DNA from: an uncultured Planctomycetaceae bacterium
Lineage (GTDB): Bacteria; Planctomycetota; Planctomycetia; Pirellulales; UBA7805
DNA: 55,724 nt
Assembly: GCA_964347545.1 (NCBI GenBank)
Contig: CAYFZZ010000192.1
Location: 1-55,724, forward strand
Reading direction: 5' to 3'
Part shown: in pieces, positions 5,204 to 40,432 of the stretch
Layout of the letters: each line of letters begins with the position of its first letter
How positions within the stretch are numbered: position 1 is the stretch's first letter
Position numbers and translations under genes: made by a program
The notes under the pieces: model-generated
Seen by the model: only the letters and a program-made list of their open reading frames with translations
Told to the model about the DNA's origin: nothing
Database searches by the model: none

Positions 5204-5573
5204 CACGTTTGACTTCCCCCCCTCCATGATTTTGAGTCTGGGATTTTGAGTCTGGAACACGCATGGCTTTGCCCGCCCGCGGGTGGTCTTCCACCCGGAT
5301 CCGGGGCCCGCCACCGGTGGCCGCCAGACGGTTTGCACAAGCGGTGGCGAACCGGCCGCCGGCCCCCGGGCCGCCGCAACAGGCGTCCCGCTTCCAACCA
5401 CTGTAATGCTAGTCACTTAGGGCCGAAATGCGGGCGTCGAATCGGTCGAGTTTAGTGGCCCGGGCCCGGCCCCGTCAATGATCCCGCCTGCCTCGCTTGG
5501 GCAGGTACCCCTTGGGGCGGGCACAACTTGGGGCCCGGCAGCAGGTTATGCCCCCTCACCCCAAAACGCCCGC

Positions 5574-5978
5574 TCAACCGCCGCTCAAGTAACCCGCGCT
5601 GGAGCGAAAGAATTTTCCCCGCCGTGTGGCGACTTCGGTGGCCGATTCTCGCTGGCGGTTCTCCAGATCCGTGAGGTTCGCCAGGCAATGCCGGCAATGG
5701 ACCTGTTGCAGATGAAAGGCGATGTAATCTGCCAGGGAGGGGGGTAAGACCCCCAGCAGATAACTGCCCAGCTGCTGTCGGGTCGGGCAGGTCAAGCGGT
5801 GACGCCGCCAGATTTCGCCCAGCGAGTGAACCCCGGCGTCGCGGCGGGCGTGGACATCGGCCAGCTGCTGGGTCAGCTGGGGATTTTCGCGGAGGGACAT
5901 TTCCACGTCCGCCATCTCTGGGACCGGCAGGGCTTCGTCCAGGTACGCTTCCAGATGTGCCGTCGAATAAGAGCGCAT
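5574..5978 (-). CDS. Small soluble Zn-finger (zf-HC2-like) putative anti-sigma factor
   Basis: It starts 9 nt after the ECF sigma stop. It contains a Cys/His cluster (LTCPTRQQ ... HLQQVHCRHCLANL). I see no TM segment. Start taken at the MRSYSTAHLEAYLDE methionine. Confidence 0.6.
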   Translation of the reverse strand: MRSYSTAHLEAYLDEALPVPEMADVEMSLRENPQLTQQLADVHARRDAGVHSLGEIWRRHRLTCPTRQQLGSYLLGVLPPSLADYIAFHLQQVHCRHCLANLTDLENRQRESATEVATRRGKFFRSSAGYLSGG

Positions 5979-5986
5979 GGGTAATC

Positions 5987-6631
5987 TCAGTTGGCCGTAT
6001 CCGACAACTCGGGAAACACATCCTGGTTCAGCCCCAGTTTCCGCAGGGTTTTCCGCAGGCGTGCCAGGAAATCGAATTTGAAATTCGCCACCTGCTGTTC
6101 GGTCAATCCCAAGGCCGCTGCCACCTGCTTGTTCGGCAGCCCGCGGACTTGCAGCAATTCCATACATTTCAGTTTGGTCCACTCGTTCCGCTCGCGCCAG
6201 TAGTCCAGCTGTTCACGCAGAGCTCGGGCCAGCGCATCGGCTTCCAGCGACTTGCGCTCGCCGCTGCGCGCCAGGCTGCTGACCGCACGGCGCCCGTCGG
6301 GCAATTCGGGGGCTCCCTGGCTGGTCGGCGGCGCGAGAGGGATGACCGGTCGCCGCCCTTCGCGGCGGAGATAGTCGGTCAACTTGTGGGCTGCAATCGA
6401 GAACAGGTAGCTTTCCAGCGACCGGGACTCGTCAAAATGAGGCAGGCTGGTCAGAAAACCAACGAAGGTCTCCTGGACGACATCTTCACTGGCCTCGCGA
6501 CGACCGATCCGCGTTTGCACGAAGGCCAGCAAGCGGCCTTCGAACCGAGCGATCAGCTCGTCCCAAGCCTGGGGCTCGCCGCGTCGGATGCGTTGGACCA
6601 GCAAGGTATCGGATTCTGAGGCGAGTGACAT
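5987..6631 (-). CDS. ECF-type RNA polymerase sigma-70 factor
   Basis: Region 2 is recognisable (LLVQRIRRGEPQAWDELIARFEGRLLAFV ... DVVQETFVGF). So is the region 4 HTH (LPNKQVAAALGLTEQQVANFKFDFLARLRK). Confidence 0.9.
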   Translation of the reverse strand: MSLASESDTLLVQRIRRGEPQAWDELIARFEGRLLAFVQTRIGRREASEDVVQETFVGFLTSLPHFDESRSLESYLFSIAAHKLTDYLRREGRRPVIPLAPPTSQGAPELPDGRRAVSSLARSGERKSLEADALARALREQLDYWRERNEWTKLKCMELLQVRGLPNKQVAAALGLTEQQVANFKFDFLARLRKTLRKLGLNQDVFPELSDTAN

Positions 6632-6702
6632 CGGTGTTTTTCAGGATGAGTCGAGCGTGACCACCGGCCACAGGAAGTTTGGCAAAAGGGCGGCGAGCGG
6701 AA

Positions 6703-7560
6703 CTACCAATGGGTCAGCAACAGGGTGGCCCCACTGGCCAGCAGGCCACACAGCGTGGCGGCAGACCATCCCAAGCGGCGTCGATAACGACCTTGGGTAG
6801 CATCATCGACCCGGAGGCAACTGCAAATCGTCAACAGGGCCAGCAGCACTGCCGCCAGGCCGACACCGGCCTGGCGCAAACGTTGCTGGACCACGGCTTG
6901 CCGAGCCCACAGCCACAACTGGTCGTGCGCTTCGCGCCCGATGCTCAACCGCTGGTAAACCTCGTGCATGTCGCCAAACGAATGCCTGCGGGTTTCCACA
7001 TGTTCGTCCACGACGACCAGATCGCGTAACCCGGCGGGGGGGAGGGAAAGGGCGAGCCCTTTGGCGTGGGCGATATTTTCATCCACGTATGCCCGCACGA
7101 CCTTGTGCAATTCCTCGTTCAGCACCCGCTCGCAATCCAGGATCCGGGCGTGCGGTCCGGAACGGATGACGGTGGGCGTGCTGCCCTCCCGCCGGTCCGG
7201 CGGGTCGGTTACCCAATCCGGCGCGGGCCGGTCGGGCAGCGCCAATCGCGGGGGCACGTCGGAGTCGGCCGCCGCCTGTTCGACGACCGGCATGCCGGCC
7301 AGCTGCGGGTCAGGCAGGGCGACTTCCCCCGCGCGGGGGCTGGTGGACAACCGAAGTTGGCTGGGACCTTGGGGACGACCCTGCAGGAAAAGTAGGGCCA
7401 TCCCGCACAGTCCGGCGACGGCGCCTAACGTCAGCCAGGGTAGGGCACCCAGCCGGAGGGCCTTGACCAGCAGCACGAGCCCACCGACCACCAGGGCCAG
7501 GAGGAGCAATCCTGCGGCGACGGCCAGCGCGGCGGAGAGGAAAACGGTAGGAACGGACAT
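6703..7560 (-). CDS. Membrane protein, unknown function (2 N-terminal + 2 C-terminal TM helices around a soluble middle domain)
   Basis: ATG at 7560 lies 10 nt downstream of the kinase stop. Both ends are hydrophobic, and codon GC3 is high like the neighbouring genes. Confidence 0.65.
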   Translation of the reverse strand: MSVPTVFLSAALAVAAGLLLLALVVGGLVLLVKALRLGALPWLTLGAVAGLCGMALLFLQGRPQGPSQLRLSTSPRAGEVALPDPQLAGMPVVEQAAADSDVPPRLALPDRPAPDWVTDPPDRREGSTPTVIRSGPHARILDCERVLNEELHKVVRAYVDENIAHAKGLALSLPPAGLRDLVVVDEHVETRRHSFGDMHEVYQRLSIGREAHDQLWLWARQAVVQQRLRQAGVGLAAVLLALLTICSCLRVDDATQGRYRRRLGWSAATLCGLLASGATLLLTHW

Positions 7561-7569
7561 GATCCGGCC

Positions 7570-9645
7570 TCAAGCGGTTGGCGTTACGGGGCGTCGAGGT
7601 TTGGCCGACCAGGGGCTGGACAGTTGCACGGCGACGGCCACCGTCGCGGCAAACATGAATCCCCACGGCTGGGGAAACGCAGCCCAGTTGGCGGGGAAGG
7701 GCCACAGGAGGTACAACGCTCCGGCCCACGTGACGGCGACCGCGGTCGACCAGAGGCTGAGCCGTGCCGAGCGATTGGGATGGCTCAGCCGCCACCAGCG
7801 GACTAGCAGAAAGAGAAAGCCGAAGTAAGACAAGTAGGTCATCAAAGCGTGGGGCGCGAATTGATCTGCGACAGCAGAAGGGGACGGACCGGATTTTGGC
7901 TCAGCCCCGGCCCACACGGGCTGAGCGGAAAACTCGTGCGGCAGGCTGACCCACAGATGTTGCTGGACCCCGTAGGCCGCCCCGCCCACCAGGAGGCCCA
8001 CGACCAGCATCCAGAACCGCCGCACCGCCGGCTCGGTATCGCCACCTTCCCAAATTTTTCCCGGGATCAACACGCCCCACGTGCCCAGCGTGCTGGTCAA
8101 GGCCAGCCAGGCGTACTGTTCGCTACTCGCTTCCACGCCGCGCAGCAGCAGCATCACCAGGCTCATCACCAGGCAAACCACGCCGCTCAGCACCATCGAC
8201 CCGCTCAACTCCGTCATCTTCTCCCGCGCCGTCTTGACGGGCAGGGGGGGCGAACTGGGGGTAGGCCAGCGTCGTCGTCGAGCGTGGGCGGGGTGGGGAT
8301 TGCCCTCGGCCACGGGGGGACCACTGGCCGCCGCTGCGACGGGAGGCGGCGGCGATGCCGCCGCAGGCCCCGCCAGCGGCTGGGCCGAGCCAGCCGATGT
8401 CCGATGGCCGAGAGACCAGCAGGCGCGATAGACCAGGTAGGTCAGCACCAGGCAGACCAGGGCCGGAAACAAAACCACGGACGTCTGGAGGATCAACCAG
8501 ATGGCCCCGGCGATAAAGACGACCTTCACCAGCGTGTTGAACTGGTTGTTCCAGGCGCTGCCGAACTGAGCACACTGTTGCTTGACCCACCGCAGGATCG
8601 GTTCTTCGGTCTCCTCGGGGGGAGGAAGGGCCGAGGGCGGTGGACCTGCCAGGGGGGCGTGGTCGGTCGCATCGTCGGCCAGCTGGGCCATCACCGCCGG
8701 GTCCCTGGCCGGATGCGCCTCGCTCGCGGGGAGCAGGGGCGACGTCTGGGGCGCCAGGGGGGTCGGCGCGGGGGCGGAAAGCGGCGGGAGGTCGGCCAGC
8801 AGCTCGGCCGCGGAAGCGTAACGGACGCGGGGGTCCTTGGCCAGGGCCCGACCCACAATCGTCCGGTACGGTTCGGCCAGCCTCGTCAGATCCGGTTCGG
8901 CCGTCAAATGCTTCATCAAGATCTCGCCGACGCTTTCCCCCTCGAACGGGACTCGGCCCGTTAACATCTCGTAGCAGATCACGCCCAGCGCATAGAGATC
9001 GATTTCCTTGCCGTAACGCCCGTTGGCGATTTCGGGCGCCATGTAATGGACCGTACCAACGCTCTCGGTCTGTCCGCTGCGCCGACTGCAGGAAATGAAT
9101 TTGGAGAGCCCGTAATCGCCAATCTTGACCAGGCCGTTTTCGGAAAAGATGTTGCCCGGCTTCAAATCGCGATGCACGATCCCCGATTCGTGCAGGTAGG
9201 CCACGCCGGCGGCGATGCCCCGGATCCAGGCGTTCGCTTCCTCGGGGGGCAGGCCCTCGGGGTGTAGGCGGATCACCTCTTCCAGCCGCTGACCCGCCAC
9301 ATGCTCCATGACCACCCAGTGATCGTCACTGGGGTCACAGCGGATATCGTAGAGCGCCACCAGGTTGGGATGTTTCAGGTTCAGGCACTGCACCACGCCG
9401 CGGAGTTCCACATCGAAGTTGCGGCGGATCAGTTTTAGGGCGACTTCCTTGCCACCGTCGCTGACGGCGAAATAGACCTCACCGAAACCGCCGTGACCAA
9501 TCCCCCGCTTGATGGTAAACCCGTCCAGGGGCCGGGAACCGCTGCGGTAGATGAATCGCCGCTGGTCTCGGGCCGAGGGGTCAGACGCCGAGCCGTCTGG
9601 GGGCTGAGCGACGGTCAGATCGGCTTGTTCGGTACGAACTTTCAT
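7570..9645 (-). CDS. Ser/Thr protein kinase with Pro-rich linker and large polytopic C-terminal membrane domain
   Basis: Hanks kinase motifs are present: GHGGFGEVY, VALKLI, HRDLKPGNI, DYGLSK and APE. After about 300 aa there is a P/A-rich linker, then at least 8 hydrophobic segments. Confidence 0.9.
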   Translation of the reverse strand: MKVRTEQADLTVAQPPDGSASDPSARDQRRFIYRSGSRPLDGFTIKRGIGHGGFGEVYFAVSDGGKEVALKLIRRNFDVELRGVVQCLNLKHPNLVALYDIRCDPSDDHWVVMEHVAGQRLEEVIRLHPEGLPPEEANAWIRGIAAGVAYLHESGIVHRDLKPGNIFSENGLVKIGDYGLSKFISCSRRSGQTESVGTVHYMAPEIANGRYGKEIDLYALGVICYEMLTGRVPFEGESVGEILMKHLTAEPDLTRLAEPYRTIVGRALAKDPRVRYASAAELLADLPPLSAPAPTPLAPQTSPLLPASEAHPARDPAVMAQLADDATDHAPLAGPPPSALPPPEETEEPILRWVKQQCAQFGSAWNNQFNTLVKVVFIAGAIWLILQTSVVLFPALVCLVLTYLVYRACWSLGHRTSAGSAQPLAGPAAASPPPPVAAAASGPPVAEGNPHPAHARRRRWPTPSSPPLPVKTAREKMTELSGSMVLSGVVCLVMSLVMLLLRGVEASSEQYAWLALTSTLGTWGVLIPGKIWEGGDTEPAVRRFWMLVVGLLVGGAAYGVQQHLWVSLPHEFSAQPVWAGAEPKSGPSPSAVADQFAPHALMTYLSYFGFLFLLVRWWRLSHPNRSARLSLWSTAVAVTWAGALYLLWPFPANWAAFPQPWGFMFAATVAVAVQLSSPWSAKPRRPVTPTA

Positions 9646-9814
9646 GGCCCACGACCTGTGCGTGATCGGCGTGCAGCGAAACGGGAGGGACCCGTGACGT
9701 TGCCAGACCTTTTCATTTTAGGGAACACTTTAGTCGCGTGCAGCGGCCGTGTGTTACCGCGAGTTGAGATGGATGAAAGTCGCCCATGACCGTTCCCGTT
9801 CAGCCCACCAAAGT

Positions 9815-9859
9815 CCCCTCTCCCCCATCCCCCGGCACGCCGGGGGACGGGGGAGAGGG
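9815..9859. repeat. GC-rich extended hairpin (CCCCTCTCCCCCATCCCCCGGC-ACG-CCGGGGGACGGGGGAGAGGG)
   Basis: An almost perfect 20-bp inverted repeat read directly from the sequence. It sits in the FHA-kinase intergenic region. Confidence 0.6.
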
Positions 9860-9936
9860 TACCGGAGGCGTGTCTGGCAAGCAGGGGAAACAGCGCCATC
9901 TTTCCTTCTGCTGCCATCCGGTAAAGTGTTTTCATT

Positions 9937-10599
9937 TTAGACACTTTCCATCGCCAAGGAAAAATCCCTCCCGCGGACCGTGATCCCGGGTCCCTGACCC
10001 CCTCCGGCGGGGCCGCGGTGACCATGAATTTCGATTTCCCCCGCGGTGTGGCATGTCCACTGTTGGTTATCGCGAAACAGCACGACCTCCCCAGCCAGGT
10101 GGGGGGCGACAATGTGGCAAGTGGGGCTGGGTCCCAGGATCAGCGTGTCGGCCATCAGGATCACACCGTCCACGGCCGGCTGCGTGCGGTGGTGGCTGAC
10201 CAGGTCCAGCCGAGCGGTCGCGCTGAGCGGATGGGGTTGGCGAAAGTTTAGCTGGACGTGGGAGCTGAGCTGAATCAGCGCACCGTCCCGGAGGTTCGCC
10301 GCTGACGGTAACTTGTGGTGGTCAATCCGCGTTTCCGCCAGCGGGACGGCGACGTACCCCTCGGGATCGCGGCGGATCGTCAGGTGCCGCCGCGAGATGT
10401 CGGCTTGGAGGGGCACGTCGACACCAGGTGTGGGCAAGGCCTGGCCCAGGATGATCCGATCCCCTCCACAGACGAGGAACCCGCCCACGGCATCGACCCA
10501 CAACAACAGCCGATAACCGGCCGGAAACGCCATCCCTTGGCCCCCCAGGACGGGGTGGCCGAACGAGTGCGATCTGGAGGGGGGGATTCCGGCGACCAT
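9937..10599 (-). CDS. FHA-domain protein (two FHA-like halves)
   Basis: The first half reads ILGQALPTPGVDVPLQADISRRHLTIRRDPEGYVAVPL ... NLRDGALIQL. The second reads LILGPSPTCHIVAPHLAGEVVLFRDNQQWTCH ... ITVRGRDFSL. Start chosen at ATG 10599, downstream of the preceding gene's stop. Confidence 0.75.
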   Translation of the reverse strand: MVAGIPPSRSHSFGHPVLGGQGMAFPAGYRLLLWVDAVGGFLVCGGDRIILGQALPTPGVDVPLQADISRRHLTIRRDPEGYVAVPLAETRIDHHKLPSAANLRDGALIQLSSHVQLNFRQPHPLSATARLDLVSHHRTQPAVDGVILMADTLILGPSPTCHIVAPHLAGEVVLFRDNQQWTCHTAGEIEIHGHRGPAGGGQGPGITVRGRDFSLAMESV

Positions 10600-29886: not shown

Positions 29887-31269
29887 GTGTTGCGACCGGC
29901 CACGTCAATTCTGGCTTTCTTGGCTCTTTGCCTCTGGGGCATCGTCGGCGTTGGATTAGGACAACCGCCGGCCGGGCTGGACGAGATCCCGCCGCTGGAG
30001 CTGCCGACGCCCGAGGAGGGGAACGGCAATTGGGACCAGCTGGGGGACGAAATCCCCGATCTGGGCGAGGGCCCTTCCGAGGAATTACCCGAACCGCTGG
30101 GCAATGGGGATCGCGCCGGCGCCGATGGGCAGCAGCCGTCGGCGGGGGCGGAACCCGAGCAGTTGTTTGAGGGCTATGGCGAGCAGTACGAGCACGAAGA
30201 TGAGATCCGGGTGGACTACCTGGCCCCGATCTACAGTTCCGGGGAGTGGCTGGATTGCGGCACCTGGCTGGCTCATCTCGATTTCATGCTCATGTGGCGC
30301 TCGGTCGGCCAGGATACCCTTTTGGGGGAAGATACGATCCTGAACGCCGCGGGGCAGGTGGTGGCCCGTCGGCCCCTGGTGACCACCAACGTGGGATTCC
30401 GGATCACGCCCGGAGGCCGGATCAAGCTGGGCAGGTTCCTGACGCGGGATGTCTATAACCGCGACGTGATTACCGAAATCGAATACATGGGCCTTGTCGA
30501 TTTCCAGGTGGGTACCCAGCTGGCCGGTATCGGGAACGCGGGGATTCTGACCGCCTTGGATCCCTTTTTCGAGCCTGGCGGCTTTACGCCCACCATTGGC
30601 GGATTCAACAACTCGACATTCCAGCGTTTCGATTACAGTTCGGACCTGAACAGCTTTGAAATCAACACCCGCCTCCAGTATCGTCTGGGTCGCGACCGGC
30701 TGGTGGCCATGCCGGATGGGACGTGGAGCCGCCAGTTGGCCAGCACGCTGGTGCCTGCCTGCTTTATGGGGTTCCGCTATATCAAGGAGCAGGAGACCTT
30801 GTCGTGGGTCAGTCGCGTTAACGGGTTCCCCCTGGACGTCTATCGCGGCGACTACATCGTCGACACCGTGAACGAGCTGATAGGCTTCCAGGTTGGCGGC
30901 GACGCTCGGCTGCAGCACAAAAACTTCAACGCCGCGCTTCGTGTGAAAGGTGGCACTTTTGTCAACTTTGGGGACTCACGACGTTTTATCCTCAGCAATG
31001 ATCCCACGCCGGGCCGGATAGTGTTTAACCCGCCCTTGCGTACGACCCAACAGGATGAGGTCCTGGCGATCGCCTTGGAGGCAGGACTTAAGGGTGCTTA
31101 TCACGTGAACCCCAACCTGACGTTTCGGTTGAGTGGCGATGTGATGTGGCTGCATGGGCTGGCCGTGGCTCCTGAGCAGCTGACGTTTGAGCCGAGTCGC
31201 GGGCGGATCGATATGAGCGGAAATATTCTCTATCTGGGTCTTTCGACCGGAGTTGAGCTGATTTGGTGA
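29887..31269 (+). CDS. Outer-membrane beta-barrel protein, BBP7-like (planctomycetal family)
   Basis: GTG 29887 has GGAGG 9 nt upstream. A signal peptide (MLRPATSILAFLALCLWGIVGVGLG) and an acidic Pro-rich linker precede alternating beta-strand-like sequence. The protein ends in ...LSTGVELIW, an aromatic OMP-type C-terminus. Confidence 0.7.
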   Translation: MLRPATSILAFLALCLWGIVGVGLGQPPAGLDEIPPLELPTPEEGNGNWDQLGDEIPDLGEGPSEELPEPLGNGDRAGADGQQPSAGAEPEQLFEGYGEQYEHEDEIRVDYLAPIYSSGEWLDCGTWLAHLDFMLMWRSVGQDTLLGEDTILNAAGQVVARRPLVTTNVGFRITPGGRIKLGRFLTRDVYNRDVITEIEYMGLVDFQVGTQLAGIGNAGILTALDPFFEPGGFTPTIGGFNNSTFQRFDYSSDLNSFEINTRLQYRLGRDRLVAMPDGTWSRQLASTLVPACFMGFRYIKEQETLSWVSRVNGFPLDVYRGDYIVDTVNELIGFQVGGDARLQHKNFNAALRVKGGTFVNFGDSRRFILSNDPTPGRIVFNPPLRTTQQDEVLAIALEAGLKGAYHVNPNLTFRLSGDVMWLHGLAVAPEQLTFEPSRGRIDMSGNILYLGLSTGVELIW

Positions 31270-34202
31270 TGCAACGGCCTTATTTTTTTACGCGTAAATC
31301 GTTCCTGATTTTGCTGGCCGCCGTGTTCCTGCTGCCGATCGCCCTGCGCGGCGCGCGGATCGCTTTGGAAAACAACAAGAATGACGTCACCGAGTGGCTG
31401 CCGGACGGTTTTGCGGAAACCAAGGAGCTGGACTGGTTTCGCCATCACTTCCTGGGCGAGCAATTTGTGGTGATCAGCTGGGAGGGTTGTACCCTGGACG
31501 ACCCTCGCGTGGAAATGCTGGCCCGCAAACTGGTGCCTGACCACGAGTCGCCTGACAACGAGCGTCAGCGGTCGTTTTTCAAGAAGGTGACCACCGGTCC
31601 GCGCGTGCTGGCTCAGATGACCGACCCCGAGGGGAGTCTCAAGCTTAGCCAGCGAGAGGCCAAGCGGCGGTTGCAGGGGTCGCTGATCGGACACGACGGG
31701 GAAACGACCTGTGTCCTGGCCACCTTGCACGAAGGGGCCCTCCGCGACCTGCGGGCCGGCATCGGCCGCTCGTGGCCGCTCACCCAAATCCTCATGGGCC
31801 GCGAGGACGGCATTCTGTACCAGCTGGCTGTCAAGGAATGTGCCATTTCCAAGCCATCTATCCACCTCGGCGGACCGCCGGTGGACAACGTGGCGATTGA
31901 CGATGAAGGGGAAATCACCCTCATGCGGCTGGTAGGGCTCTCCGCCCTCGTCGGCCTCTGCCTCTCGTACTACTGCTTTCGCAGCAAGCGGGTCACGCTG
32001 ATGGTCTTCTGCTGCGGCGTCTACGGCGCGGCCGCCAGCCTGGCCATTGTCTACTTCACCCGGGGGGTCGTCGACGCCGTGCTGATGTCGATGCCTTCGG
32101 TGATCTACGTCCTGGGGCTCTCCGGGGCGATCCACCTGGTCAACTACTACCAGGACGCGGTCCGCGAATCAGGTCAGGAGGGAGCCCCGGGACGGGCGCT
32201 CAAGCACGGCTGGTTGCCCTGTACCCTGGCTGCGGTCACGACGGCCCTGGGGTTGGGCTCGCTGGTGACCAGTGAAGTGGTGCCGATCCGTAAATTCGGG
32301 AGCTACACCGCCTGGGGTGTCTTGTTCACCCTGGTGATCCTCTTCACCCTCCTGCCGGCCCTGTTGCAATTGTGGCCGCCACCCCGCCGCCGCCAAGTGA
32401 CCGCTCGGCCGATGGACCAGCAGCCCCCCGCCCGATGGGGCACGCTGCTGGACCGCTTTGCCTGCTGGATCGTCGGCCGCCATGTGGTCGTCACTGTGGT
32501 GTGCTCGATCGTGATGGCGATCCTGGCGATGGGCCTGCTGAAGATCGAAACCTCCGTGCAGTTGCTGAAACTCTTCCACAGCAAGGCCGACATCATCCAA
32601 GACTACACCTGGTTGGAACAGAACCTGGGCAATCTGGTGCCGATGGAGGTGGTGTTGCGGGTGCATCCTTCGCGGATGCGAGAAGCGGACGACGAGCTGA
32701 TGTCGGCAGAGGGCCGTTATCGGTTGACGTTTCTCGAGCGGATGGAGCTGGTGGAGGCGGTGCAGGAAAACATTGAACGCCTGCCAGAGGTCGGTCGAGC
32801 GTTGTCGATGAACACCTTTGCCCCCGTGTTGCCACCCAAGGCGGGCAGCCTGGCCACCTTTACCGAACGTTCCGGATTCAATGCCGGCCTGGCAAATCAC
32901 CGGGAAGAGTTCCTCGCAGGCGAGTACTTCCGGGTCGGTGAGGAGGGAGAGGAGCTGTTTCGGATCAGCGCGCGGTTGGCGGCGTTAAGCGACGTGGATT
33001 ACGGTCATTTCGTGGACGATATCCGCGGAGTGGTGCGGCCCATTCTGGCGGCCTACCGGCAGCGGGATCGGATCCTGGCCGAAATGGGCAGCCAGCAGGG
33101 TTCGTTCCGCGGCAAGCGGGTCTGCGTGGTAGGGGTTCCTCGCTGGAAACGCCCCACCAAGGAGACCCCGCCTCCCACGGCGGCCACCCCTTCAGACGAA
33201 CATCCCACCACCAGCCAGATCCTGGCCGGGACGCTGTACGACGCCTTACGGGTGGCGGGGGTCAAGGTCAGCCCGATTTTTGAGGCCGCTGCGGATTATG
33301 AGGCCACTAATTTCATCCGCGCCGGCGACGACAATCCGAAAGCCCAGGAATTCTTCAAAAAATTTGACCTGGTCTTTATTGCCAGCGATCACCCCTCAGT
33401 CGCCTCACGGTTTATCATGCGACATGCCCGGGCCTACATCGACGCGCGCCAGTTCGATCCGCTCAGCGTCGATCCCCAGGCAGAAATCGCGTCCGGGCTG
33501 AGGCCGGTCTACACGGGCGTGGTGCCGCTGGTCTACAAGGCTCAACGCGAGCTGCTGCAGGGCCTGGTGGAAAGTATCGGGCTGGCCTTCGTCTTGATCT
33601 GCATCGTGATGATCGCCATTCTCCGCTCGCCTTCCGCCGGCCTGTTATCGATGATTCCCAACGTATTTCCCATCGTGATGGTGTTTGGCTTCATGGGCTG
33701 GGCGGGGATTCTGATCGATATCGGCACGATGATGACGGCCAGCGTCGCCATGGGGGTCGCCGTGGACGACACGGTTCATTTTCTGACCTGGTTCCGCCGC
33801 GGCATTCTCAGCGGGCTCGACCGCCGAGGTGCGGTCCGCCTGGCCTATGCCCGTTGTGCCACAGCCATGATGCAAACGACGCTGATCGGCGGTCTGGGCT
33901 TGGGCGTGTTCGCGCTCAGCACCTTCACCCCCACGCAACGATTCGGCTACCTGATGATTGTCCTCTTGGTCACCGCGCTGGTCGGTGATTTGATCTTTCT
34001 GCCCGCTCTGCTGGCCGGACCGGTGGGACGCTTCTTTACCGGCCGCCTCCAACGGCAGGCTCTGCGGCGACAGGCCCCCGAGGGACAAGATACGCCGGCT
34101 CACGGCGTGCCGGCGCCGCACTTTGCCAGTCAGCCCCGGCATGCCCCCTCGGCGACATTTTCCCAGCCGCCCGATCCCCCCCGCTCGTCCCCCGGCGGCT
34201 GA
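31269..34202 (+). CDS. MMPL/RND-superfamily (SSD-type) transporter, ~977 aa
   Basis: There are two blocks of 5-6 TM helices separated by large soluble domains. Typical motifs include SMPSVIYVLGLSGAIHLVNYY and MTASVAMGVAVDDTVHFL. The ATG overlaps the barrel gene's TGA (TGATG). Confidence 0.85.
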   Translation: MQRPYFFTRKSFLILLAAVFLLPIALRGARIALENNKNDVTEWLPDGFAETKELDWFRHHFLGEQFVVISWEGCTLDDPRVEMLARKLVPDHESPDNERQRSFFKKVTTGPRVLAQMTDPEGSLKLSQREAKRRLQGSLIGHDGETTCVLATLHEGALRDLRAGIGRSWPLTQILMGREDGILYQLAVKECAISKPSIHLGGPPVDNVAIDDEGEITLMRLVGLSALVGLCLSYYCFRSKRVTLMVFCCGVYGAAASLAIVYFTRGVVDAVLMSMPSVIYVLGLSGAIHLVNYYQDAVRESGQEGAPGRALKHGWLPCTLAAVTTALGLGSLVTSEVVPIRKFGSYTAWGVLFTLVILFTLLPALLQLWPPPRRRQVTARPMDQQPPARWGTLLDRFACWIVGRHVVVTVVCSIVMAILAMGLLKIETSVQLLKLFHSKADIIQDYTWLEQNLGNLVPMEVVLRVHPSRMREADDELMSAEGRYRLTFLERMELVEAVQENIERLPEVGRALSMNTFAPVLPPKAGSLATFTERSGFNAGLANHREEFLAGEYFRVGEEGEELFRISARLAALSDVDYGHFVDDIRGVVRPILAAYRQRDRILAEMGSQQGSFRGKRVCVVGVPRWKRPTKETPPPTAATPSDEHPTTSQILAGTLYDALRVAGVKVSPIFEAAADYEATNFIRAGDDNPKAQEFFKKFDLVFIASDHPSVASRFIMRHARAYIDARQFDPLSVDPQAEIASGLRPVYTGVVPLVYKAQRELLQGLVESIGLAFVLICIVMIAILRSPSAGLLSMIPNVFPIVMVFGFMGWAGILIDIGTMMTASVAMGVAVDDTVHFLTWFRRGILSGLDRRGAVRLAYARCATAMMQTTLIGGLGLGVFALSTFTPTQRFGYLMIVLLVTALVGDLIFLPALLAGPVGRFFTGRLQRQALRRQAPEGQDTPAHGVPAPHFASQPRHAPSATFSQPPDPPRSSPGG

Positions 34203-34609
34203 ACGGGACGCGGCCAGGGCCGCGCGTCCGCAAAGACACCCCCCCCCGCACCGAGCGGGTTTCCCCGATCCGCTTCCGGATCACCAGACCGTTCGTCTCC
34301 TTCCTGCCGTCCGCCGCCTCCCGACCACGGCGTCCGCCGGCCCACCGCCGCTCGGCCCGGGTCTGCCAGCCCCACGGGCAGCGCGGGACTTGGGGTGGCC
34401 CGATCCGGCCAGCTGCCCTCAGCCAGGCCGCACGCTCACCACGTCCCTTCTGGCCCTCCTTCCGCCTTCAGGCGGTCGGGAACGCGCATCGCCCCTCGGC
34501 GGGCGGGACACGGCGCTGGTCCACTGGGCATCCGCCCCATCCACCCGCTTCTGACAAAAATTTGTGGGGTGCGGTAAGATGAACAAGCCGTCAACGGTTG
34601 GCCCTTACG

Positions 34610-35956
34610 ATGCTGTTTCCCCTCCCCTTAGCGCCTTTCGAAGAGTACATGCTGGTCGATGACCGGCCGGCATATCCGATGAACTTCTTCCTGCGGTTGC
34701 GGTTTGAGGGCCTGTTCAACCCTGCCTTGCTGGAAGAGGCATGTGGCCAAAGCGTGGCTCGGCATCCGCTGCTGTCCGCCCATTTGCAGCCGGCCCGCGG
34801 AGGTCGGTTCCAGTGGGTACAGCCCTCCCACCGCTCGTGCCCGCTCAGGTGGCGCACCACAGCGGGGGGCGAGGAGCCGATTGGGGCGATTGACCTGCAG
34901 CGCGAACCGGGACTGCGGGTTTGGGCCACGGCCGAAAAAGACGGCACAGAGCTGTTGCTGCAGTTTCATCACAGTTGTTGCGACGCCGTGGGCGCTTGCC
35001 AGTTTGTCGAGGATCTGCTGGTCTGCTATGCCGGCCTGCAGGGAGGGGCTGGGTCACCAGCCGATCTGCGGCCGGTGGACGCGGCTGGTCTTTTGTCGCG
35101 GGAGTCGTACGGTGCGCCCGGCTGGCAGTTGACGCGGCTGTTTGGCCAACAGTCGCTCGGTCTCCGGCGAGCCCGCAAGTTTTTCATGCGCAACGCCGTG
35201 CCGCTCAAGCCGGGCGTCGAGCGGGTTGCGGAGGATTCGCTGCCCGACGATTTTCCCAGCAGTTGCGTGCACGAATTCGACCAGCCCCAAACGGCAGGGC
35301 TGCTGGCCGCCGCTCGGGCAGCGGGTACGACGGTGAACAATCTCTTGCTGAGGGACCTCTTTCTGGCGCTGGAGGCGTTTCGAGCGCGGCGGGAGATGAG
35401 CTGTGGGGAGGATTGGTTGCGGCTGGCGGTGCCGGTGAATATGCGGTTGCGCGGGGACGAGCGGTTGCCGACGGCGAATTTGGTAAGCATGGTGTTTTTG
35501 GACCGCCAGTCGCGCGAATGTGCCGATCCGGCGGCATTGTTGCTCAGCCTGCATGACGAAATGCAGCTGGTCAAGCAGCGGCGGTTGGGACTGACCTTCC
35601 TCCTGGCCCTCCGCTACAACCGCAAGCTACCCGGCGCGATCGCTCGGCTCCGCCGCCGCACCCAGCGGGCCCTCTGCCAGGGTACGGCCGTGATCAGCAA
35701 CCTGGTCAGCCCCTGGGAAAATTCCAGTCTGCGGCGGCCGGATGGCCAAATCGTGGCCGGGGATGTCCTGTTGCGACGCGTCGATTTTCTGCCACCCCTG
35801 CGCCCGTACACGGCCGCAGCGGTCGGCGTGGTGACCTGTGCCCAACGGTTGTGCCTGGCCCTCCACTACGATTCGCGGGTATTGAATCGCGAAGAGGCCG
35901 CAGAACTGCTGGAAAACCTGGTCCGCGGTATGCAGCGGTCGCAGGCACCGGTCTGA
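34610..35956 (+). CDS. Free-standing condensation-domain (PapA5 / WS-DGAT-like) acyltransferase
   Basis: LLLQFHHSCCDAVG places an HHxxxD(G/A) motif at residues 120-126, and the length is about 448 aa. No A or T domains are attached. A TTG alternative start lies at 34598. Confidence 0.8.
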   Translation: MLFPLPLAPFEEYMLVDDRPAYPMNFFLRLRFEGLFNPALLEEACGQSVARHPLLSAHLQPARGGRFQWVQPSHRSCPLRWRTTAGGEEPIGAIDLQREPGLRVWATAEKDGTELLLQFHHSCCDAVGACQFVEDLLVCYAGLQGGAGSPADLRPVDAAGLLSRESYGAPGWQLTRLFGQQSLGLRRARKFFMRNAVPLKPGVERVAEDSLPDDFPSSCVHEFDQPQTAGLLAAARAAGTTVNNLLLRDLFLALEAFRARREMSCGEDWLRLAVPVNMRLRGDERLPTANLVSMVFLDRQSRECADPAALLLSLHDEMQLVKQRRLGLTFLLALRYNRKLPGAIARLRRRTQRALCQGTAVISNLVSPWENSSLRRPDGQIVAGDVLLRRVDFLPPLRPYTAAAVGVVTCAQRLCLALHYDSRVLNREEAAELLENLVRGMQRSQAPV

Positions 35957-36407
35957 CCAGGACCACCGGGTGCGTGCTGATCTTTCCTGCGCGCCTTGAC
36001 GCCTTGGCGTGAAACAGAATTCCGAACCGGAGATCGCCGCGCGGCCTGCGGCGGCCACCAAAACGTCCGGATGGTGAAGAGGAGCGAACCGGGTCAACGG
36101 AGGGCATGGCCATGCTCTGTTTCCTCCGTTACCTCATGTTCAAAAAATGCACGCACCTTGCGCCGCTGTTGATTGGTTGCAGCGCAAAGGTCGCCGAGAG
36201 GAAAAGTCCGCCGGCCGAGGTTTCGGAATTTTTGCTTTGAATTTGTTTCGGATTTCGAAATTCGGATTTCGGATTTTCCTCCGGCCAGGCAGTCTGTTTA
36301 TTTTTGACAGGATCGACATGAGGTTTTGGTCAGGTTGGTAGTTTAAATGTCAGTTGTCCCGGCCGGGGACGACCGGCCGAGAGGGGGGAGGCGGACCGCC
36401 GGTCCGC

Positions 36408-37718
36408 TCAGGCCAGGCGGGATGGTTCGGCGGCGATCAGCACGGCCACCGCCTGGCCCATCTGGGCTTGATTCAGCAAGAGGGCCACCGGTTTGCCCAG
36501 CGGTTGGGATTGACCGTGGACGACGTTCACCGGGCATTCCGCGTCGGGTTGCTGGTAATTGAGCGTCACGGGGATTTCACCGTGGGCCAGCCCCAGCAGG
36601 CTGGCGACGGCTTCGACCGCGCCTCCCCCGGCCCCGATGTCGCCGAAAAAACTCTTGGGGGCCGTGACGGGGACATCCCCCAGCACATCCCGGATGGCCT
36701 GCGCCTCGGTTCGGTCACCTTCGATGGTGGCGATGCCGTTGGCGTTGACGTGGCCGATGTCGGCCGGTCGTAGTCCCGCCGCTGCGAGGGCCGCTTGGAT
36801 GCCGGCCCGAATCGCCTGGCCCTCAGGCGGTGACCCCTGCCGGGTCGGTGGCTGGAAGGTACTGCCGTAACCGAGGATCCGCCCCAGGATGCGGGCCCCT
36901 CGCTGCTGAGCATGTGCTCGGCTCTCCAGCACGAACGAAGCGGCCCCTTCGCCAGGCACCGTCCCATCGCGGTCGGCGTCAAAGGGGCGGCAAGCGGTGG
37001 AGGGGGGGGAGGGGCAACGGTGGGTTAACTGGTTGCGAAGGCGGAAGTCGATGCAGGTGGGATGAATCTGCGAACTGGTACCGCCGGCGATGATCACATC
37101 CGCCTGGTTTCGCTGGATCACCCGAACGGCCTCGGTCAGAGCCTGCAGGCTGGAAACATCCCCGAGGGTGATCGAGTTATTGGGGCCCCGTGCGTCGTGA
37201 GCGATACCGATGTGGCAAGCGGGCATGTTGGGAAGGTATTTCAACAGCCACAAGGGATACATCTCGGAGAGGGCCTGGGATCCCCAACGAGCGAATTCGA
37301 ATTTGCCGTTGACCATGCAACTTCGCATCGGATCGACAATTTCCTCGACCTCGCAGTACATCAGGTCGGCCCCAAAAATAACCCCCACCCTTTCCGGATC
37401 GACGGCGGCCTCTTTCAGTCCGCTGTCGCCGACCGCCATATCGGCCGCGGCGAATCCGAGCTGAATGTCGCGGCACATGACCTTCAAGCTCTTCCGCGGC
37501 CGCACATACTGCTTGGGGTCGAAATCGTCGACCTGCCCGGCCAACTTGCAGGGGCAGTTGCGGTTGTCAAAGGCGGTCAGTTCGCCAATCCCGCTGCGCC
37601 CAGCCTGCAGGGCGTCCCAGAAGGCGTCCAGGCCAATGCCGATGGGGCTGATCACCCCCATACCGGTGATCACGACTTCGCGCTGCGGCGAATCAAGTTG
37701 ATAGCCACGGGAGTGCAT
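36408..37718 (-). CDS. Beta-ketoacyl-ACP synthase II (FabF)-like protein lacking the Cys-His-His triad
   Basis: It is colinear with FabF (VVITGMGVISPIG ... DVIIAGGTS ... RPFDADRDGTVPGEGAA). The triad positions read TLGDVSS (Cys to Asp), VNANGIAT (His to Asn) and KSFFGDIGAGGG (His to Asp). Confidence 0.85.
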   Translation of the reverse strand: MHSRGYQLDSPQREVVITGMGVISPIGIGLDAFWDALQAGRSGIGELTAFDNRNCPCKLAGQVDDFDPKQYVRPRKSLKVMCRDIQLGFAAADMAVGDSGLKEAAVDPERVGVIFGADLMYCEVEEIVDPMRSCMVNGKFEFARWGSQALSEMYPLWLLKYLPNMPACHIGIAHDARGPNNSITLGDVSSLQALTEAVRVIQRNQADVIIAGGTSSQIHPTCIDFRLRNQLTHRCPSPPSTACRPFDADRDGTVPGEGAASFVLESRAHAQQRGARILGRILGYGSTFQPPTRQGSPPEGQAIRAGIQAALAAAGLRPADIGHVNANGIATIEGDRTEAQAIRDVLGDVPVTAPKSFFGDIGAGGGAVEAVASLLGLAHGEIPVTLNYQQPDAECPVNVVHGQSQPLGKPVALLLNQAQMGQAVAVLIAAEPSRLA

Positions 37719-37965
37719 CGGGCGGGGCAGCGGCGGGCTCGAGGATTTAGAAGCGGCACCGGTGAGAGGGCCAGCAGCCCCAGCAGCCGGTAGGTGTGGA
37801 AGACCCCACATCCTAATCGGCGGCTGAAAAACCATCAAGATTAGAGCGCCGCTGGGCGTCCCCCACCCCACCGTTACGGTCAGGCCGCTCGGCCAGCGAG
37901 GAAGGCCCGCCAGCCGGTAAAGTGCTCGGCACACTGACCGCCGCGCCGCCCAGCCACCACCGCGC

Positions 37966-39135
37966 CTAAGATCCCGCTTCGCTATCCGCCGGGTAGTCGT
38001 ACAGCCGGTGCGTTTTGACCAGCCGGGCCCCCCCCTTTTCCAAACTGCGGCGGGAAAGCCGATTCGACTCGGCCACCCAGGAGAATTCGCATTCCTCGAT
38101 GCCGTAGTCCAGCACCTTGGGCAACAGGCCTTGGAGGACGACGAGGCTGAGCCCCCATTTTTGGTACTCGGGCACCACCGTAGTCGCGATGGCGCGAATC
38201 CGCTTGATCTCGCGCCGCTTGCTCAGCAGCTTCCAGAAACCCCACGGGAACAGGCGACCATCGGCCTGGCGAATGCGGGGGTTGAAATCCAACAAGGCGA
38301 AACAAGCACCGACCACCTTGCCCTCCACCTCGGCGATGCTGGTCAGCTGCGGTTCAATCAGCCACCGCAAGGCCCGGCTGAAATGCCGTGCCTCCGAGTC
38401 GGTCAACGGCACAAATCCCCAATTGTTGGCCAGGGATGCGTTGTAAATCTGCAAGTAGGTATCGACTTCCTCGCGAAAACGGGATTTGTCCAACGAACGG
38501 ACCTCTACCTGGAAGCGGCGCTTGGCTTCCTCACCAATAAACGCCAGCTTTTCGTCCAGCCCTGCCAGCATGTTGATGTGACCCCAGAAGGAAAGCAGGT
38601 CCTGGGATTTGCGGAAACCAAATTCTTCCACCAAACGCGGATAATACGGCTTGTTGTACGTCATCATGAACGTCGGCGGTTCGTCGAAGGCATCGATCAG
38701 CAGGCCACATTCGTAATTCATCGACGGGTTGACTGGTCCCCGCAGTTGGTGGATCCCCCGTTCGGCAAACCAATCGCGGACCGCCGTGAACAGCCCGCGG
38801 GCCACCTCCGAGTCGTCCACCGACTCGAAAAATCCAAAAAAGCCTCGCTGTTCCTCGTGATAGCGGTTGTGGCCGTGATCCAGGACGGCGGCAATCCGCC
38901 CGCAGACCGCCCCCGCCCGGGTGGCCAGAAACGTCTGAGCCTCGTTTTGCTCGTAGAAGGGGTGCTTCTTGTAACCGACCAGCTCCTGCTGGTTCAGCCG
39001 CAGAGGAGGGATCCAGTGGGGATCCTCGCGGTACAACTGCCAGGGATATTCCAGAAATTGCTTCCGCTGGCGGCGCGTGGTGACCGGCTGGACCTGAAGA
39101 GCGGACAAGGGTGCCTCCGCCGTCGGTTGGCGCAA
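37966..39135 (-). CDS. GNAT-like acyl/acetyl-transferase family protein (~390 aa, uncharacterised family)
   Basis: FLEYPWQLYREDPHWIPPLRL ... GRIAAVLDHGHNRYHEEQRGFFGFFESVDD ... LRGPVNPSMNYECGLL matches my recollection of a widespread uncharacterised GNAT-fold family. The start codon is uncertain (TTG 39135). Confidence 0.65.
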   Translation of the reverse strand: MRQPTAEAPLSALQVQPVTTRRQRKQFLEYPWQLYREDPHWIPPLRLNQQELVGYKKHPFYEQNEAQTFLATRAGAVCGRIAAVLDHGHNRYHEEQRGFFGFFESVDDSEVARGLFTAVRDWFAERGIHQLRGPVNPSMNYECGLLIDAFDEPPTFMMTYNKPYYPRLVEEFGFRKSQDLLSFWGHINMLAGLDEKLAFIGEEAKRRFQVEVRSLDKSRFREEVDTYLQIYNASLANNWGFVPLTDSEARHFSRALRWLIEPQLTSIAEVEGKVVGACFALLDFNPRIRQADGRLFPWGFWKLLSKRREIKRIRAIATTVVPEYQKWGLSLVVLQGLLPKVLDYGIEECEFSWVAESNRLSRRSLEKGGARLVKTHRLYDYPADSEAGS

Positions 39136-39210
39136 GGGTTGGGGACGCTGAGACTGGCTGAGCAGTGTAAAGGCCCCTTCGGGGGACGGTCAAGGTAATC
39201 CTGGCCCGGG

Positions 39211-39407
39211 AAGGGGTGAGGGGGTCAGGAGTGAGTGGGTGAGTGGTGAGTGGGGAGTGGTGAGTGGGGAGCGGGGAGCGGGGAGCGGGGAGGGGGTGAA
39301 ACAGGATTGTCAGCTGCAGAAGGCATCCAGTAGGCTGAGAGGCCGACAGGACTTCCAACCGCGTTTTTCTCCACCCCCTTACCCCTCCACCCCCTCACCC
39401 CCTCACT
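39211..39407. repeat. G-rich microsatellite block (39211-39297; GGGGAGC and GTGAGTGG units) and complementary C-rich block (39371-39407)
   Basis: Read directly from the sequence. Positions 39213-39225 (GGGGTGAGGGGGT) are perfectly complementary to 39389-39401. The blocks lie in the divergent intergenic region between the GNAT-like and epimerase genes. Confidence 0.8.
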
Positions 39408-39418
39408 CGGGTGCAGCC

Positions 39419-40432
39419 ATGGCCCATTTCCTGGTCACCGGCGGAACCGGTTTCATCGGCAGCCACCTGGTCGATACCCTGCTGGCCCGCGGGCACCAGG
39501 TCACTTGTCTGGCTCGACCCTCCCCCCGCACCGAGCGCCTGCAGGGCCAGGCGGTGCGGCTGGTGGAAGGCGACCTGTGCGACACGGCGGCGGTCCGGCA
39601 GGCGGTGGAGGACTGCGACGTGGTTTTTCACCTGGCCGGTTCGGTCAAGGCGCTCCAGCCAGAAACGATGCTCAAAACCAACGTCGAAGGCACACGGGTC
39701 CTGGCGACCGCCTGTGCCGCTCGACCCACTCCCCCCACGCTGGTGCTGACCTCCAGCCTGGCGGCGGCGGGACCCAGCCCGGCGGGGCAACCGCGACGGG
39801 AGGGGGATCGTTGTCAGCCCGTGTCGGTCTACGGACGCAGCAAGCGGGACGCTGAACTGGTGCTGGAGGAATTTGCCCAGCGGCTGCCGGCCAGCGTGGT
39901 ACGGCCTCCCATCGTATTTGGACCCCGCGACCAGGGCATGCTGGCCATGTTCAAGGCGATCCGCCGGACGCGGATGCACCTCCTGCCTGGCTACCGCCGT
40001 CGCACCTATTCCCTGATCCATGCTGCCGATCTGGTGGAGGCCTTGCTGCGGGTCGCCACCCAAGGATCGCGGCTGGCTGCGGCCAGTTCCGAGGGTGGCC
40101 ACCAGGGTTATTACTACGTGGCCGACGATCAGCAGCTGACGTACGGCCAGTTAGGCAGCATGATCACCCGCGCTCTGGGCGGCCGCTGGGTGCTGAACCT
40201 GCCGATGCCTGAGTGGAGCGTTTGGTTGTCGGCGTGGGTCAACGACCAAATCTCCCGCCGGCGGGGGGAGGCACACGTGTTGAATATTGACAAAGCCCGC
40301 GAGGCGACGGCCGGCAGCTGGACCTGCTCGGCGGAAAAAATCGAGCGGGAACTTGGCTTCCACACCGCCGCGCCGCTGGCCGAACGGATGCAGGAAACGG
40401 CAAGCTGGTATCGAGCCGAGGGGCTGTTGTGA
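39419..40432 (+). CDS. NAD(P)-dependent epimerase/dehydratase-family reductase
   Basis: MAHFLVTGGTGFIGSHLV Rossmann motif and YGRSKRDAE (YxxxK). Confidence 0.88.
   Translation: MAHFLVTGGTGFIGSHLVDTLLARGHQVTCLARPSPRTERLQGQAVRLVEGDLCDTAAVRQAVEDCDVVFHLAGSVKALQPETMLKTNVEGTRVLATACAARPTPPTLVLTSSLAAAGPSPAGQPRREGDRCQPVSVYGRSKRDAELVLEEFAQRLPASVVRPPIVFGPRDQGMLAMFKAIRRTRMHLLPGYRRRTYSLIHAADLVEALLRVATQGSRLAAASSEGGHQGYYYVADDQQLTYGQLGSMITRALGGRWVLNLPMPEWSVWLSAWVNDQISRRRGEAHVLNIDKAREATAGSWTCSAEKIERELGFHTAAPLAERMQETASWYRAEGLL

Follow-up and report, generated by a model that had tools for sequence, protein, structure and literature searches.

Catalytically dead ketosynthase (KS) paralogues govern chain length and priming when polyketides are made and, as was shown in 2026, in the FabF system of anammox bacteria. 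The gene considered here encodes one such paralogue, designated P0002, and lies on a 55,724-nucleotide (55.7-kb) stretch of DNA, called the window below, from an uncultured Planctomycetaceae bacterium of the order Pirellulales (GenBank assembly GCA_964347545.1, contig CAYFZZ010000192.1). The gene occupies positions 36408..37718 of the minus strand, and its 436-aa product is a KSbeta-type, i.e., chain-length-factor (CLF)-like, paralogue of the fatty-acid ketosynthase FabF in which the catalytic Cys-His-His triad reads Asp-Asn-Asp (D/N/D). It probably acts as a non-catalytic partner of an intact ketosynthase, KSalpha, whose gene lies on another contig of the same genome within a dedicated acyl carrier protein (ACP)/dehydratase operon.

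Paralogues of this type have been known in planctomycetes for some time. Rattray et al. 2009 (PMC2649909) described by sequence two FabF paralogues of Rhodopirellula baltica, RB3714 (NP_865682), with Asp163, and RB4527 (NP_866153), with Glu163, which grouped with unusual paralogues of anammox bacteria, and Table 2 of that paper gives the anammox FabF homologue Kuste3606 as Val/Asn/Glu. The R. baltica proteins resemble P0002 in being planctomycete FabF paralogues in which the Cys has given way to Asp or Glu (Asp187 in P0002); one of the two retains the Lys and one has Asn in place of the second His, and the difference is that P0002 additionally lacks both His. The order-wide occurrence of the P0002 family (121 of 121 genomes, mostly with at least two copies) fits the published account of R. 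baltica, compared here by description. P0002 is thus a further member of the planctomycete family noted in 2009 and not a new kind of enzyme, and the unusualness claimed for it in a preliminary description of this locus was overstated.

The closest functional precedent, by analogy, is the anammox heterodimer of amxFabFmut and amxFabF2. Granatino et al. 2026 (bioRxiv 10.64898/2026.05.19.726425) found Val or Thr at the Cys site of amxFabFmut and Asn, Glu or Cys at its His sites; the protein alone was inactive, but a heterodimer of the KS/CLF kind was recovered when it co-purified with intact amxFabF2, and this pair was active, decarboxylating malonyl-ACP (same study; PDB 9s5h). An inactive subunit within an active pair is a direct precedent for whole-triad loss in a functional partner subunit. 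Like P0002, amxFabFmut is a FabF-derived planctomycete protein with all three triad residues replaced, and it belongs to a fatty-acid-synthase-like system that has an ACP and a FabZ-like dehydratase of its own, in which it is the CLF-like partner of an intact KS. The two differ at the Cys site, which is Val, Thr or Phe in the anammox proteins and acidic in P0002, and in gene location: amxFabFmut is encoded beside its partner KS, whereas the partner-type operon for P0002 is found on contig C165, away from the window.

The CLFs of type II polyketide synthases (PKS), such as those of the actinorhodin (1tqy_B) and Iga12 (6kxd) structures, also have a KS fold without the nucleophilic Cys, form heterodimers with a catalytic KS, were born by tandem duplication of a KS and evolve faster than their partners. 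They differ from P0002 in that a conserved Gln occupies their Cys site and that they are translationally coupled to KSalpha, whereas P0002 has Asp there and is unlinked from any KS; adjacency to KSalpha, although absent for P0002, is present in its relatives outside the order. The assertion of the preliminary description that chain-length factors replace the Cys only is refuted by Kuste3606 (Val/Asn/Glu) and by Iga12 and ActB, CLFs that also lack the typical triad (PMC2649909; bioRxiv 10.64898/2026.05.19.726425).

For P0002 itself, a longer GTG-initiated frame reaches position 37934, but the five closest homologues (76-84% identity) are likewise 436 aa long and align over 100% of the query, so the ATG at 37718 was taken as the start. 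Searches against Pfam returned PF00109 (residues 13-269, 4.5e-38) and PF02801 (residues 279-388, 2.2e-20), and the NCBIfam FabF model TIGR03150, an equivalog, was matched end to end by residues 13-413 (model positions 1-391 of 407), which bore out the earlier claim of colinearity with the β-ketoacyl-ACP synthase II (KAS II) family; the score of 297.0 bits was below the equivalog cut-off of 493.75, as was that against PRK07314 (297.7 bits; cut-off 387). FabF profiles were nearer (1e-88) than PKS KS profiles (1e-45). An AlphaFold2 (AF2) model built with 55 homologues as input reached a predicted local distance difference test (pLDDT) score of 91.7 and a predicted template modelling (TM) score of 0.92, and its top 40 PDB matches were all FabFs (TM 0.86-0.88, 30-34% identity). 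On the strength of the confident model and these matches, the KAS II fold is predicted to be intact. P0002 thus shares the fold and length of FabF/KAS II and is colinear with it over ~400 residues, and differs from it in lacking the Cys-His-His triad and the GFGG/Phe gate and in its sub-cut-off score.

Residues were mapped through HMMER alignments to the solved FabFs 1j3n (T. thermophilus), 1e5m (Synechocystis) and 4ls5 (B. subtilis), which were free of gaps around the three motifs. Asp187 (codon GAT, 37158..37160, minus strand, as are all codons given here) takes the place of the nucleophile, Cys163 in E. coli FabF, Asn327 (AAC, 36738..36740) that of the first catalytic His (His303) and Asp360 (GAC, 36639..36641) that of the second (His340); Lys355 (AAG, 36654-36656), the conserved Lys five residues upstream of Asp360, is kept. 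The substitutions reported earlier were therefore confirmed down to the codons, and no alternative alignment to these structures put a Cys or His back at the triad positions. The C-terminal gating loop is degenerate as well, reading LNQAQMGQA (36450..36476, minus strand) where active KSs have NSFGFGGxN, so that the Phe gate is lost and Gln419 is found in the loop. A set of 25 active KSs gave 65 near-invariant positions, of which P0002 retains 41, with numerous Gly, Pro and charged residues among them, and alters 24. Many of those altered lie around the active site, namely the triad Cys and His pair, the Thr two residues past the first His, the Ser-Ser that precedes the Lys and the NSFGFGGxN gate. 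KS-Q-type malonyl decarboxylation requires both His. It is close to certain that P0002 cannot condense, as had been proposed: without the Cys no acyl chain would be loaded, and without the His pair no His-His-dependent decarboxylation of malonyl-ACP would take place.

How far these substitutions are shared was followed in two sets of relatives. A word-seeded search gave more than 7000 homologues, and residues were counted in the best 120, which are Planctomycetota/Pirellulales proteins of 57-84% identity. The Cys column held E in 80, D in 39 and A in one; the Lys column K in 119 and R in one; the first His column H in 71, N in 31 and D in 12; and the second His column N in 87, H in 10, Y in nine and D in eight. 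Orthologues of 82-84% identity read D/H/D and those of 76-77% D/C/D, and D/N/D itself was seen only in this genome; within a pattern that was already known, replacement of the entire triad is a small step confined to one lineage. The wider set consisted of 113 full-length representatives of 50%-identity clusters, drawn from 1.84 billion proteins, with a Cys column of E49/D37/G9/A6/C4/N3/R2/S2/F1, i.e., 24% non-acidic. The share of Glu or Asp at this site is thus about 76-99% in the family, and non-acidic residues also occur in close family members (R in L026 and P0131, A in L029 and P0123, G in P0132). Gln, the CLF residue, was found at the Cys column in none of the 120 homologues nor of the 113 representatives. 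The pattern reads as a pseudoenzyme signature, in which an acidic side chain is strongly preferred yet dispensable and the His sites drift freely.

The evidence for a partner came from the gene order of more distant relatives. In a phylum-wide sample from which 20 loci were fetched, the best relatives of P0002 outside the order (270-390 bits) adjoin another KS. In eight genomes from six other planctomycete families, a P0002 relative whose Cys site holds D, E or N directly precedes a KS with an intact C/H/H triad at a distance of 0-120 bp, and these C/H/H partners are 55-61% identical to a KS of this genome encoded on contig C165 (KSalpha). The full operon, present in five of the eight, comprises a FabZ-like dehydratase (HD1), in some cases FabG, an ACP, a second FabZ-like dehydratase (HD2), KSbeta and KSalpha. 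The genome under study (G000) retains this operon without KSbeta on the minus strand of C165: HD1 (168 aa, 5762-6268), an ACP of 127 aa with a ~45-aa C-terminal extension beyond a normal ACP (5280-5663), HD2 (179 aa, 4771-5310) and, 39 bp from the latter, KSalpha (430 aa, 3440-4732), an intact FabF-like KS whose 489.9 bits fall just short of the FabF equivalog threshold (493.75). This operon, at 3440-6268, is conserved across Planctomycetota, and one of the collected loci (L003) spans part of it. In another genome of the order, G105, it is again found without KSbeta, and a gene of the KSbeta-A type lies 3 kb off on the opposite strand. The search for a co-conserved catalytic partner that had been proposed thus yielded a candidate: KSalpha occurs in 117 of the 121 sampled genomes of the order at 60-77% identity, better conserved than KSbeta-A (48-62%), and in the phylum sample each genome with a KSbeta-type match also has KSalpha.

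A maximum-likelihood (ML) tree, from which the R. baltica RB3714 and RB4527 sequences were left out, placed the KSalpha and KSbeta proteins in sister clades, each with a branch support (SH-aLRT) of 97, and all Cys-less proteins, including P0002 and its in-genome paralogue, in one clade at 99. In the family f81 (loci L035-L038 of genomes G178, G203, G228 and G249), the same operon position is occupied by a tandem KS-KS pair with C/H/H in both members, and the upstream copies are basal to all Cys-less KSbeta proteins in the tree; this pair may reflect the condition from which catalysis was later lost, or else form a heterodimer in which both KSs are active. Judged by sequence, the simplest history would comprise a tandem duplication of a FabF-like KS within a dedicated ACP/dehydratase operon, an upstream copy that ceased to be catalytic and was duplicated again in the class Planctomycetia, and the dispersal of KSbeta copies away from KSalpha. 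Proteins of 816-878 aa with two KS units were considered as possible Rosetta-stone fusions and rejected: they are generic KS-KS' didomains, both halves of which are nearer to FabF/KSalpha than to the P0002 family. In P0173, P0196, P0213, P0217, P0224, P0257 and P0260, the N-terminal half looks intact and the C-terminal half is more divergent; these polypeptides resemble natural KS-CLF-type fusions.

The anammox pairs were recovered from two genomes of the sample (G152 and G182), where V/N/K/E and F/N/K/E proteins are encoded beside a C/H/H KS. There the intact KS comes first, in contrast to the other planctomycetes, in which the Cys-less gene comes first. The anammox protein scores 150-157 bits against P0002, compared with ~230 bits for ordinary FabFs. 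In the best ML tree the anammox pairs fall outside the clade of KSalpha plus KSbeta (SH-aLRT 96), and a single clade of all Cys-less proteins was not rejected by the approximately unbiased (AU) test (p = 0.254). An independent origin of the anammox and KSbeta Cys-less lineages is therefore suggested by the tree, but a single origin is also compatible with the AU test.

Besides P0002, this genome encodes a second Cys-less copy (E/H/N), three C/H/H ketosynthases and one large PKS. The E/H/N dead-KS paralogue (KSbeta-B), of 446 aa and encoded at 6525-7865, ends a canonical fabD-fabG-fabF operon on contig C276 (6525-12804, minus strand), with a 402-aa protein between it and fabF (9256-10503) that has a signal-peptide-like N-terminus and no family match. 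In a genome from another order of the class (G215, locus L044), the E/H/N paralogue follows fabF directly.

Given the ancestry of the family, its former adjacency to KSalpha, the co-occurrence of the two and the anammox precedent, P0002 is best read as a relocated, non-catalytic, CLF-like partner subunit of KSalpha (or FabF), with a probability of about 55%. P0002 would go back to the first gene of an old KSbeta-KSalpha tandem of Planctomycetota and would serve as the non-catalytic half of a KS dimer, where, in the manner of a chain-length factor, it would shape the acyl tunnel and the site at which the ACP docks; its probable partner would be the KSalpha on contig C165 (3440-4732), FabF being the less likely choice. 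For this organism we infer that the heterodimer forms, and that its product may be linked to the neighbouring tandem-GNAT acyltransferase and barrel/MMPL exporter described below. A role as heterodimer partner was one of several that the preliminary description had listed, and it gains support from the relatives that lie directly upstream of an intact KS in the ACP/dehydratase operon and from the sister clades of the tree. Several observations weigh against it. No KS gene other than P0002 is present in the 55.7-kb window, and one lies within ~9 kb in only one of the 24 loci of group A, so that the classical hallmark of KS/CLF pairs, adjacency with translational coupling, is absent here. Since nearly every genome of the order has both KSalpha and KSbeta, their co-occurrence there barely discriminates; moreover, two KSbeta paralogues stand against a single KSalpha in this genome. 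That the acidic residue hardly varies suggests that a side-chain role was retained beyond mere loss. Lastly, the amxFabFmut of S. brodae crystallises as a homodimer (bioRxiv 10.64898/2026.05.19.726425), which means that homodimers of such proteins are possible.

The present surroundings of the gene were compared with 24 group-A loci from other genomes, or 26 once two loci of family f7 (L052 and L053) were added. A block recurs on one strand that consists of RibD, a 712-aa protein of no assigned function, transaldolase, an outer-membrane barrel and an MMPL transporter; convergent to it stands the KS-like gene, preceded by a gene of 375-395 aa, after which an epimerase of the short-chain dehydrogenase/reductase (SDR) type often follows. 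In the window, the gene preceding the KS-like gene (37966..39135, minus strand) is co-directional with it across a 247-nt gap and encodes a 389-aa protein that gave no match in direct Pfam, NCBIfam and PDB sequence searches. Its homologues carry PF00583/PF13480 and are named GNAT N-acetyltransferase, and its AF2 model (pLDDT 83.8) best matched the tandem GNATs 2wpw (clavulanate), 7q3a, 5kf1, MshD and FemX, which include MAB_4324 and a glucosamine N-acetyltransferase; from the homologue annotations and the predicted fold it was assigned as a tandem-GNAT acyltransferase. Genes of this family lie upstream on the KS-like strand in 10 of the 26 loci and are conserved about as well as the KS-like family (59-67% identity). 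The ~390-aa genes found upstream of KS-like genes in three loci are not a single partner family, as the 389-aa protein shows no similarity to the 386-aa protein of L007 or the 402-aa protein of C276. A consensus scan of 35800-39500, which is weak evidence, returned a sole sigma-70-like promoter match at 39164..39193 (minus strand), just upstream of the GNAT gene and inside the 103-nt divergent spacer (39136-39238) between it and the SDR gene, and none between the GNAT and KS-like genes; this is consistent with their co-transcription.

Convergent to the KS-like gene, on the plus strand, the window carries an outer-membrane barrel-like gene (29887-31269), an MMPL/HpnN-like RND transporter (31263-34202) and, between the latter and the KS-like gene, a PapA5/WS-DGAT-like condensation-domain acyltransferase (34598..35956). 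In 11 of the 24 loci the KS-like gene directly borders a convergent barrel and/or MMPL gene, with gaps of 22-42 bp where MMPL is present. In L013, L015, L016 and L022 (families f28 and f14) the barrel abuts it without an intervening MMPL, which shows that the barrel/MMPL pairing is not universal in the block. The PapA-like gene is found in this position otherwise only in the closest relative, L008, and is a recent insertion. The two neighbours emphasised in the preliminary description thus fared differently, the GNAT-like gene proving to be a conserved upstream tandem GNAT and the condensation gene falling away as a feature of this genome and its closest relative. Divergent from the GNAT gene is an HpnA-like NAD-dependent epimerase/reductase of the SDR type (39239..40432, plus strand), which recurs near the GNAT/KS-like pair in L008, L013, L015, L016 and L019. 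About half of the group-A loci lack all of these neighbours (L007, L009, L014, L018 and L027-L031), and since the block includes the housekeeping genes for RibD and transaldolase, the adjacency may reflect inherited synteny instead of a functional link. In the two f7 loci (L052, G007:C180; L053, G034:C137) the GNAT/KS-like pair has, at a distance of 7-8 kb, a second KSalpha-like gene that shares ~60% identity with KSalpha. At the P0066 locus (L011), a fatty-acid desaturase (PF00487, 8586-9764) is placed between the tandem-GNAT and KS-like genes and a second desaturase lies 6 kb off; with the former, one lineage has recruited a further lipid-modifying gene to the locus.

It is this neighbourhood that gives rise to the main rival of the partner reading, namely that P0002 is a neofunctionalised, stand-alone KSbeta, a homodimeric acyl-ACP- or lipid-binding subunit that presents substrate to the tandem GNAT or acts as a scaffold with it, the resulting lipid being exported by the MMPL/barrel pair. 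In a more specific form of this idea, an excised KSbeta copy would have been recruited as an autonomous acyl-ACP-binding and -presenting subunit for the tandem GNAT, and an N-acylated lipid would be passed to the MMPL transporter and the barrel. The recurrence of the GNAT gene upstream and of barrel and/or MMPL genes on the convergent side, the similar conservation of the GNAT and KS-like families, the lack of a promoter-like site between their genes and of any KS nearby all speak for such a role. The convergent genes, however, are not co-transcribed with the KS-like gene, the loci without these neighbours make up about half of the group, and the block with its unrelated housekeeping genes may simply be an inherited gene order. 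A stand-alone role thus stays a tentative and rather unlikely proposal, and its specific form a little less likely again.

A further possibility is that the protein is an active enzyme of altered chemistry, in which the carboxylate at the Cys site serves as a general base or oxyanion-hole mimic, for instance in a malonyl-ACP decarboxylase (a KS-Q-like primer) or a thioesterase. The Glu or Asp in 119 of the 120 close homologues, the Lys kept in as many, a low ratio of nonsynonymous to synonymous substitution rates (dN/dS) and the presence of family members with E/H/H or D/H/H, which retain the His pair of decarboxylation, would fit such an activity. Yet the acidic residue is replaceable, by A, R or G in close members and by a non-acidic residue in 24% of the cluster representatives, and the residues that would have to cooperate with it vary freely; a replaceable acid together with drifting His sites argues against carboxylate catalysis. 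In P0002, moreover, both His are missing, as are the Thr that follows the first of them and the Phe/GFGG gate, and the loss of both His argues against a KS-Q-type malonyl decarboxylation by P0002 itself. The suggestion of a new chemistry through carboxylates, made in the preliminary description, is accordingly weakened by the A, G, R, N and S found at the Cys site and by the drift of the other two positions, and is improbable. The loss of the whole triad and the variation of the His positions between relatives could also be taken as the mark of a decaying pseudogene or relic under relaxed selection. Such a reading was rejected: the frame is open and full-length, 41 of the 65 core KS positions are kept, the fold is predicted with confidence, a homologue is present in all 121 sampled genomes of the order, most of which encode two or three that fall into distinct score classes, and dN/dS was 0.09 between P0002 and its 84%-identical orthologue in L008 and 0.13-0.25 in five other family pairs. 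Its probability is accordingly minute, and that P0002 is functional and under selection is well supported by these sequence comparisons. The non-condensing role proposed earlier is well supported by this combination of a replaced triad, Thr and gate with low dN/dS, and the realignment to FabF structures and the selection estimates that had been put forward as checks on it have both come out in its favour.

What is new here, relative to the descriptions of 2009 and 2026, is the link of the Cys-less family to an ACP/dehydratase operon and to a candidate catalytic partner, KSalpha. A very widespread planctomycete family, present in every sampled genome of the order and often in two or three copies, would thereby be placed in the class of dead-KS partners, with both a likely catalytic partner and a dedicated operon identified for it. 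The KSbeta gene appears to have dispersed to other lipid-related loci, one copy lying beside fabF and P0002 beside the tandem GNAT and the barrel/MMPL pair, and these loci offer concrete protein pairs for how Pirellulales may build and export unusual envelope lipids. If recruitment by the GNAT proved true, P0002 would be a dead ketosynthase repurposed as the substrate-delivery module of a planctomycete envelope-lipid pathway.

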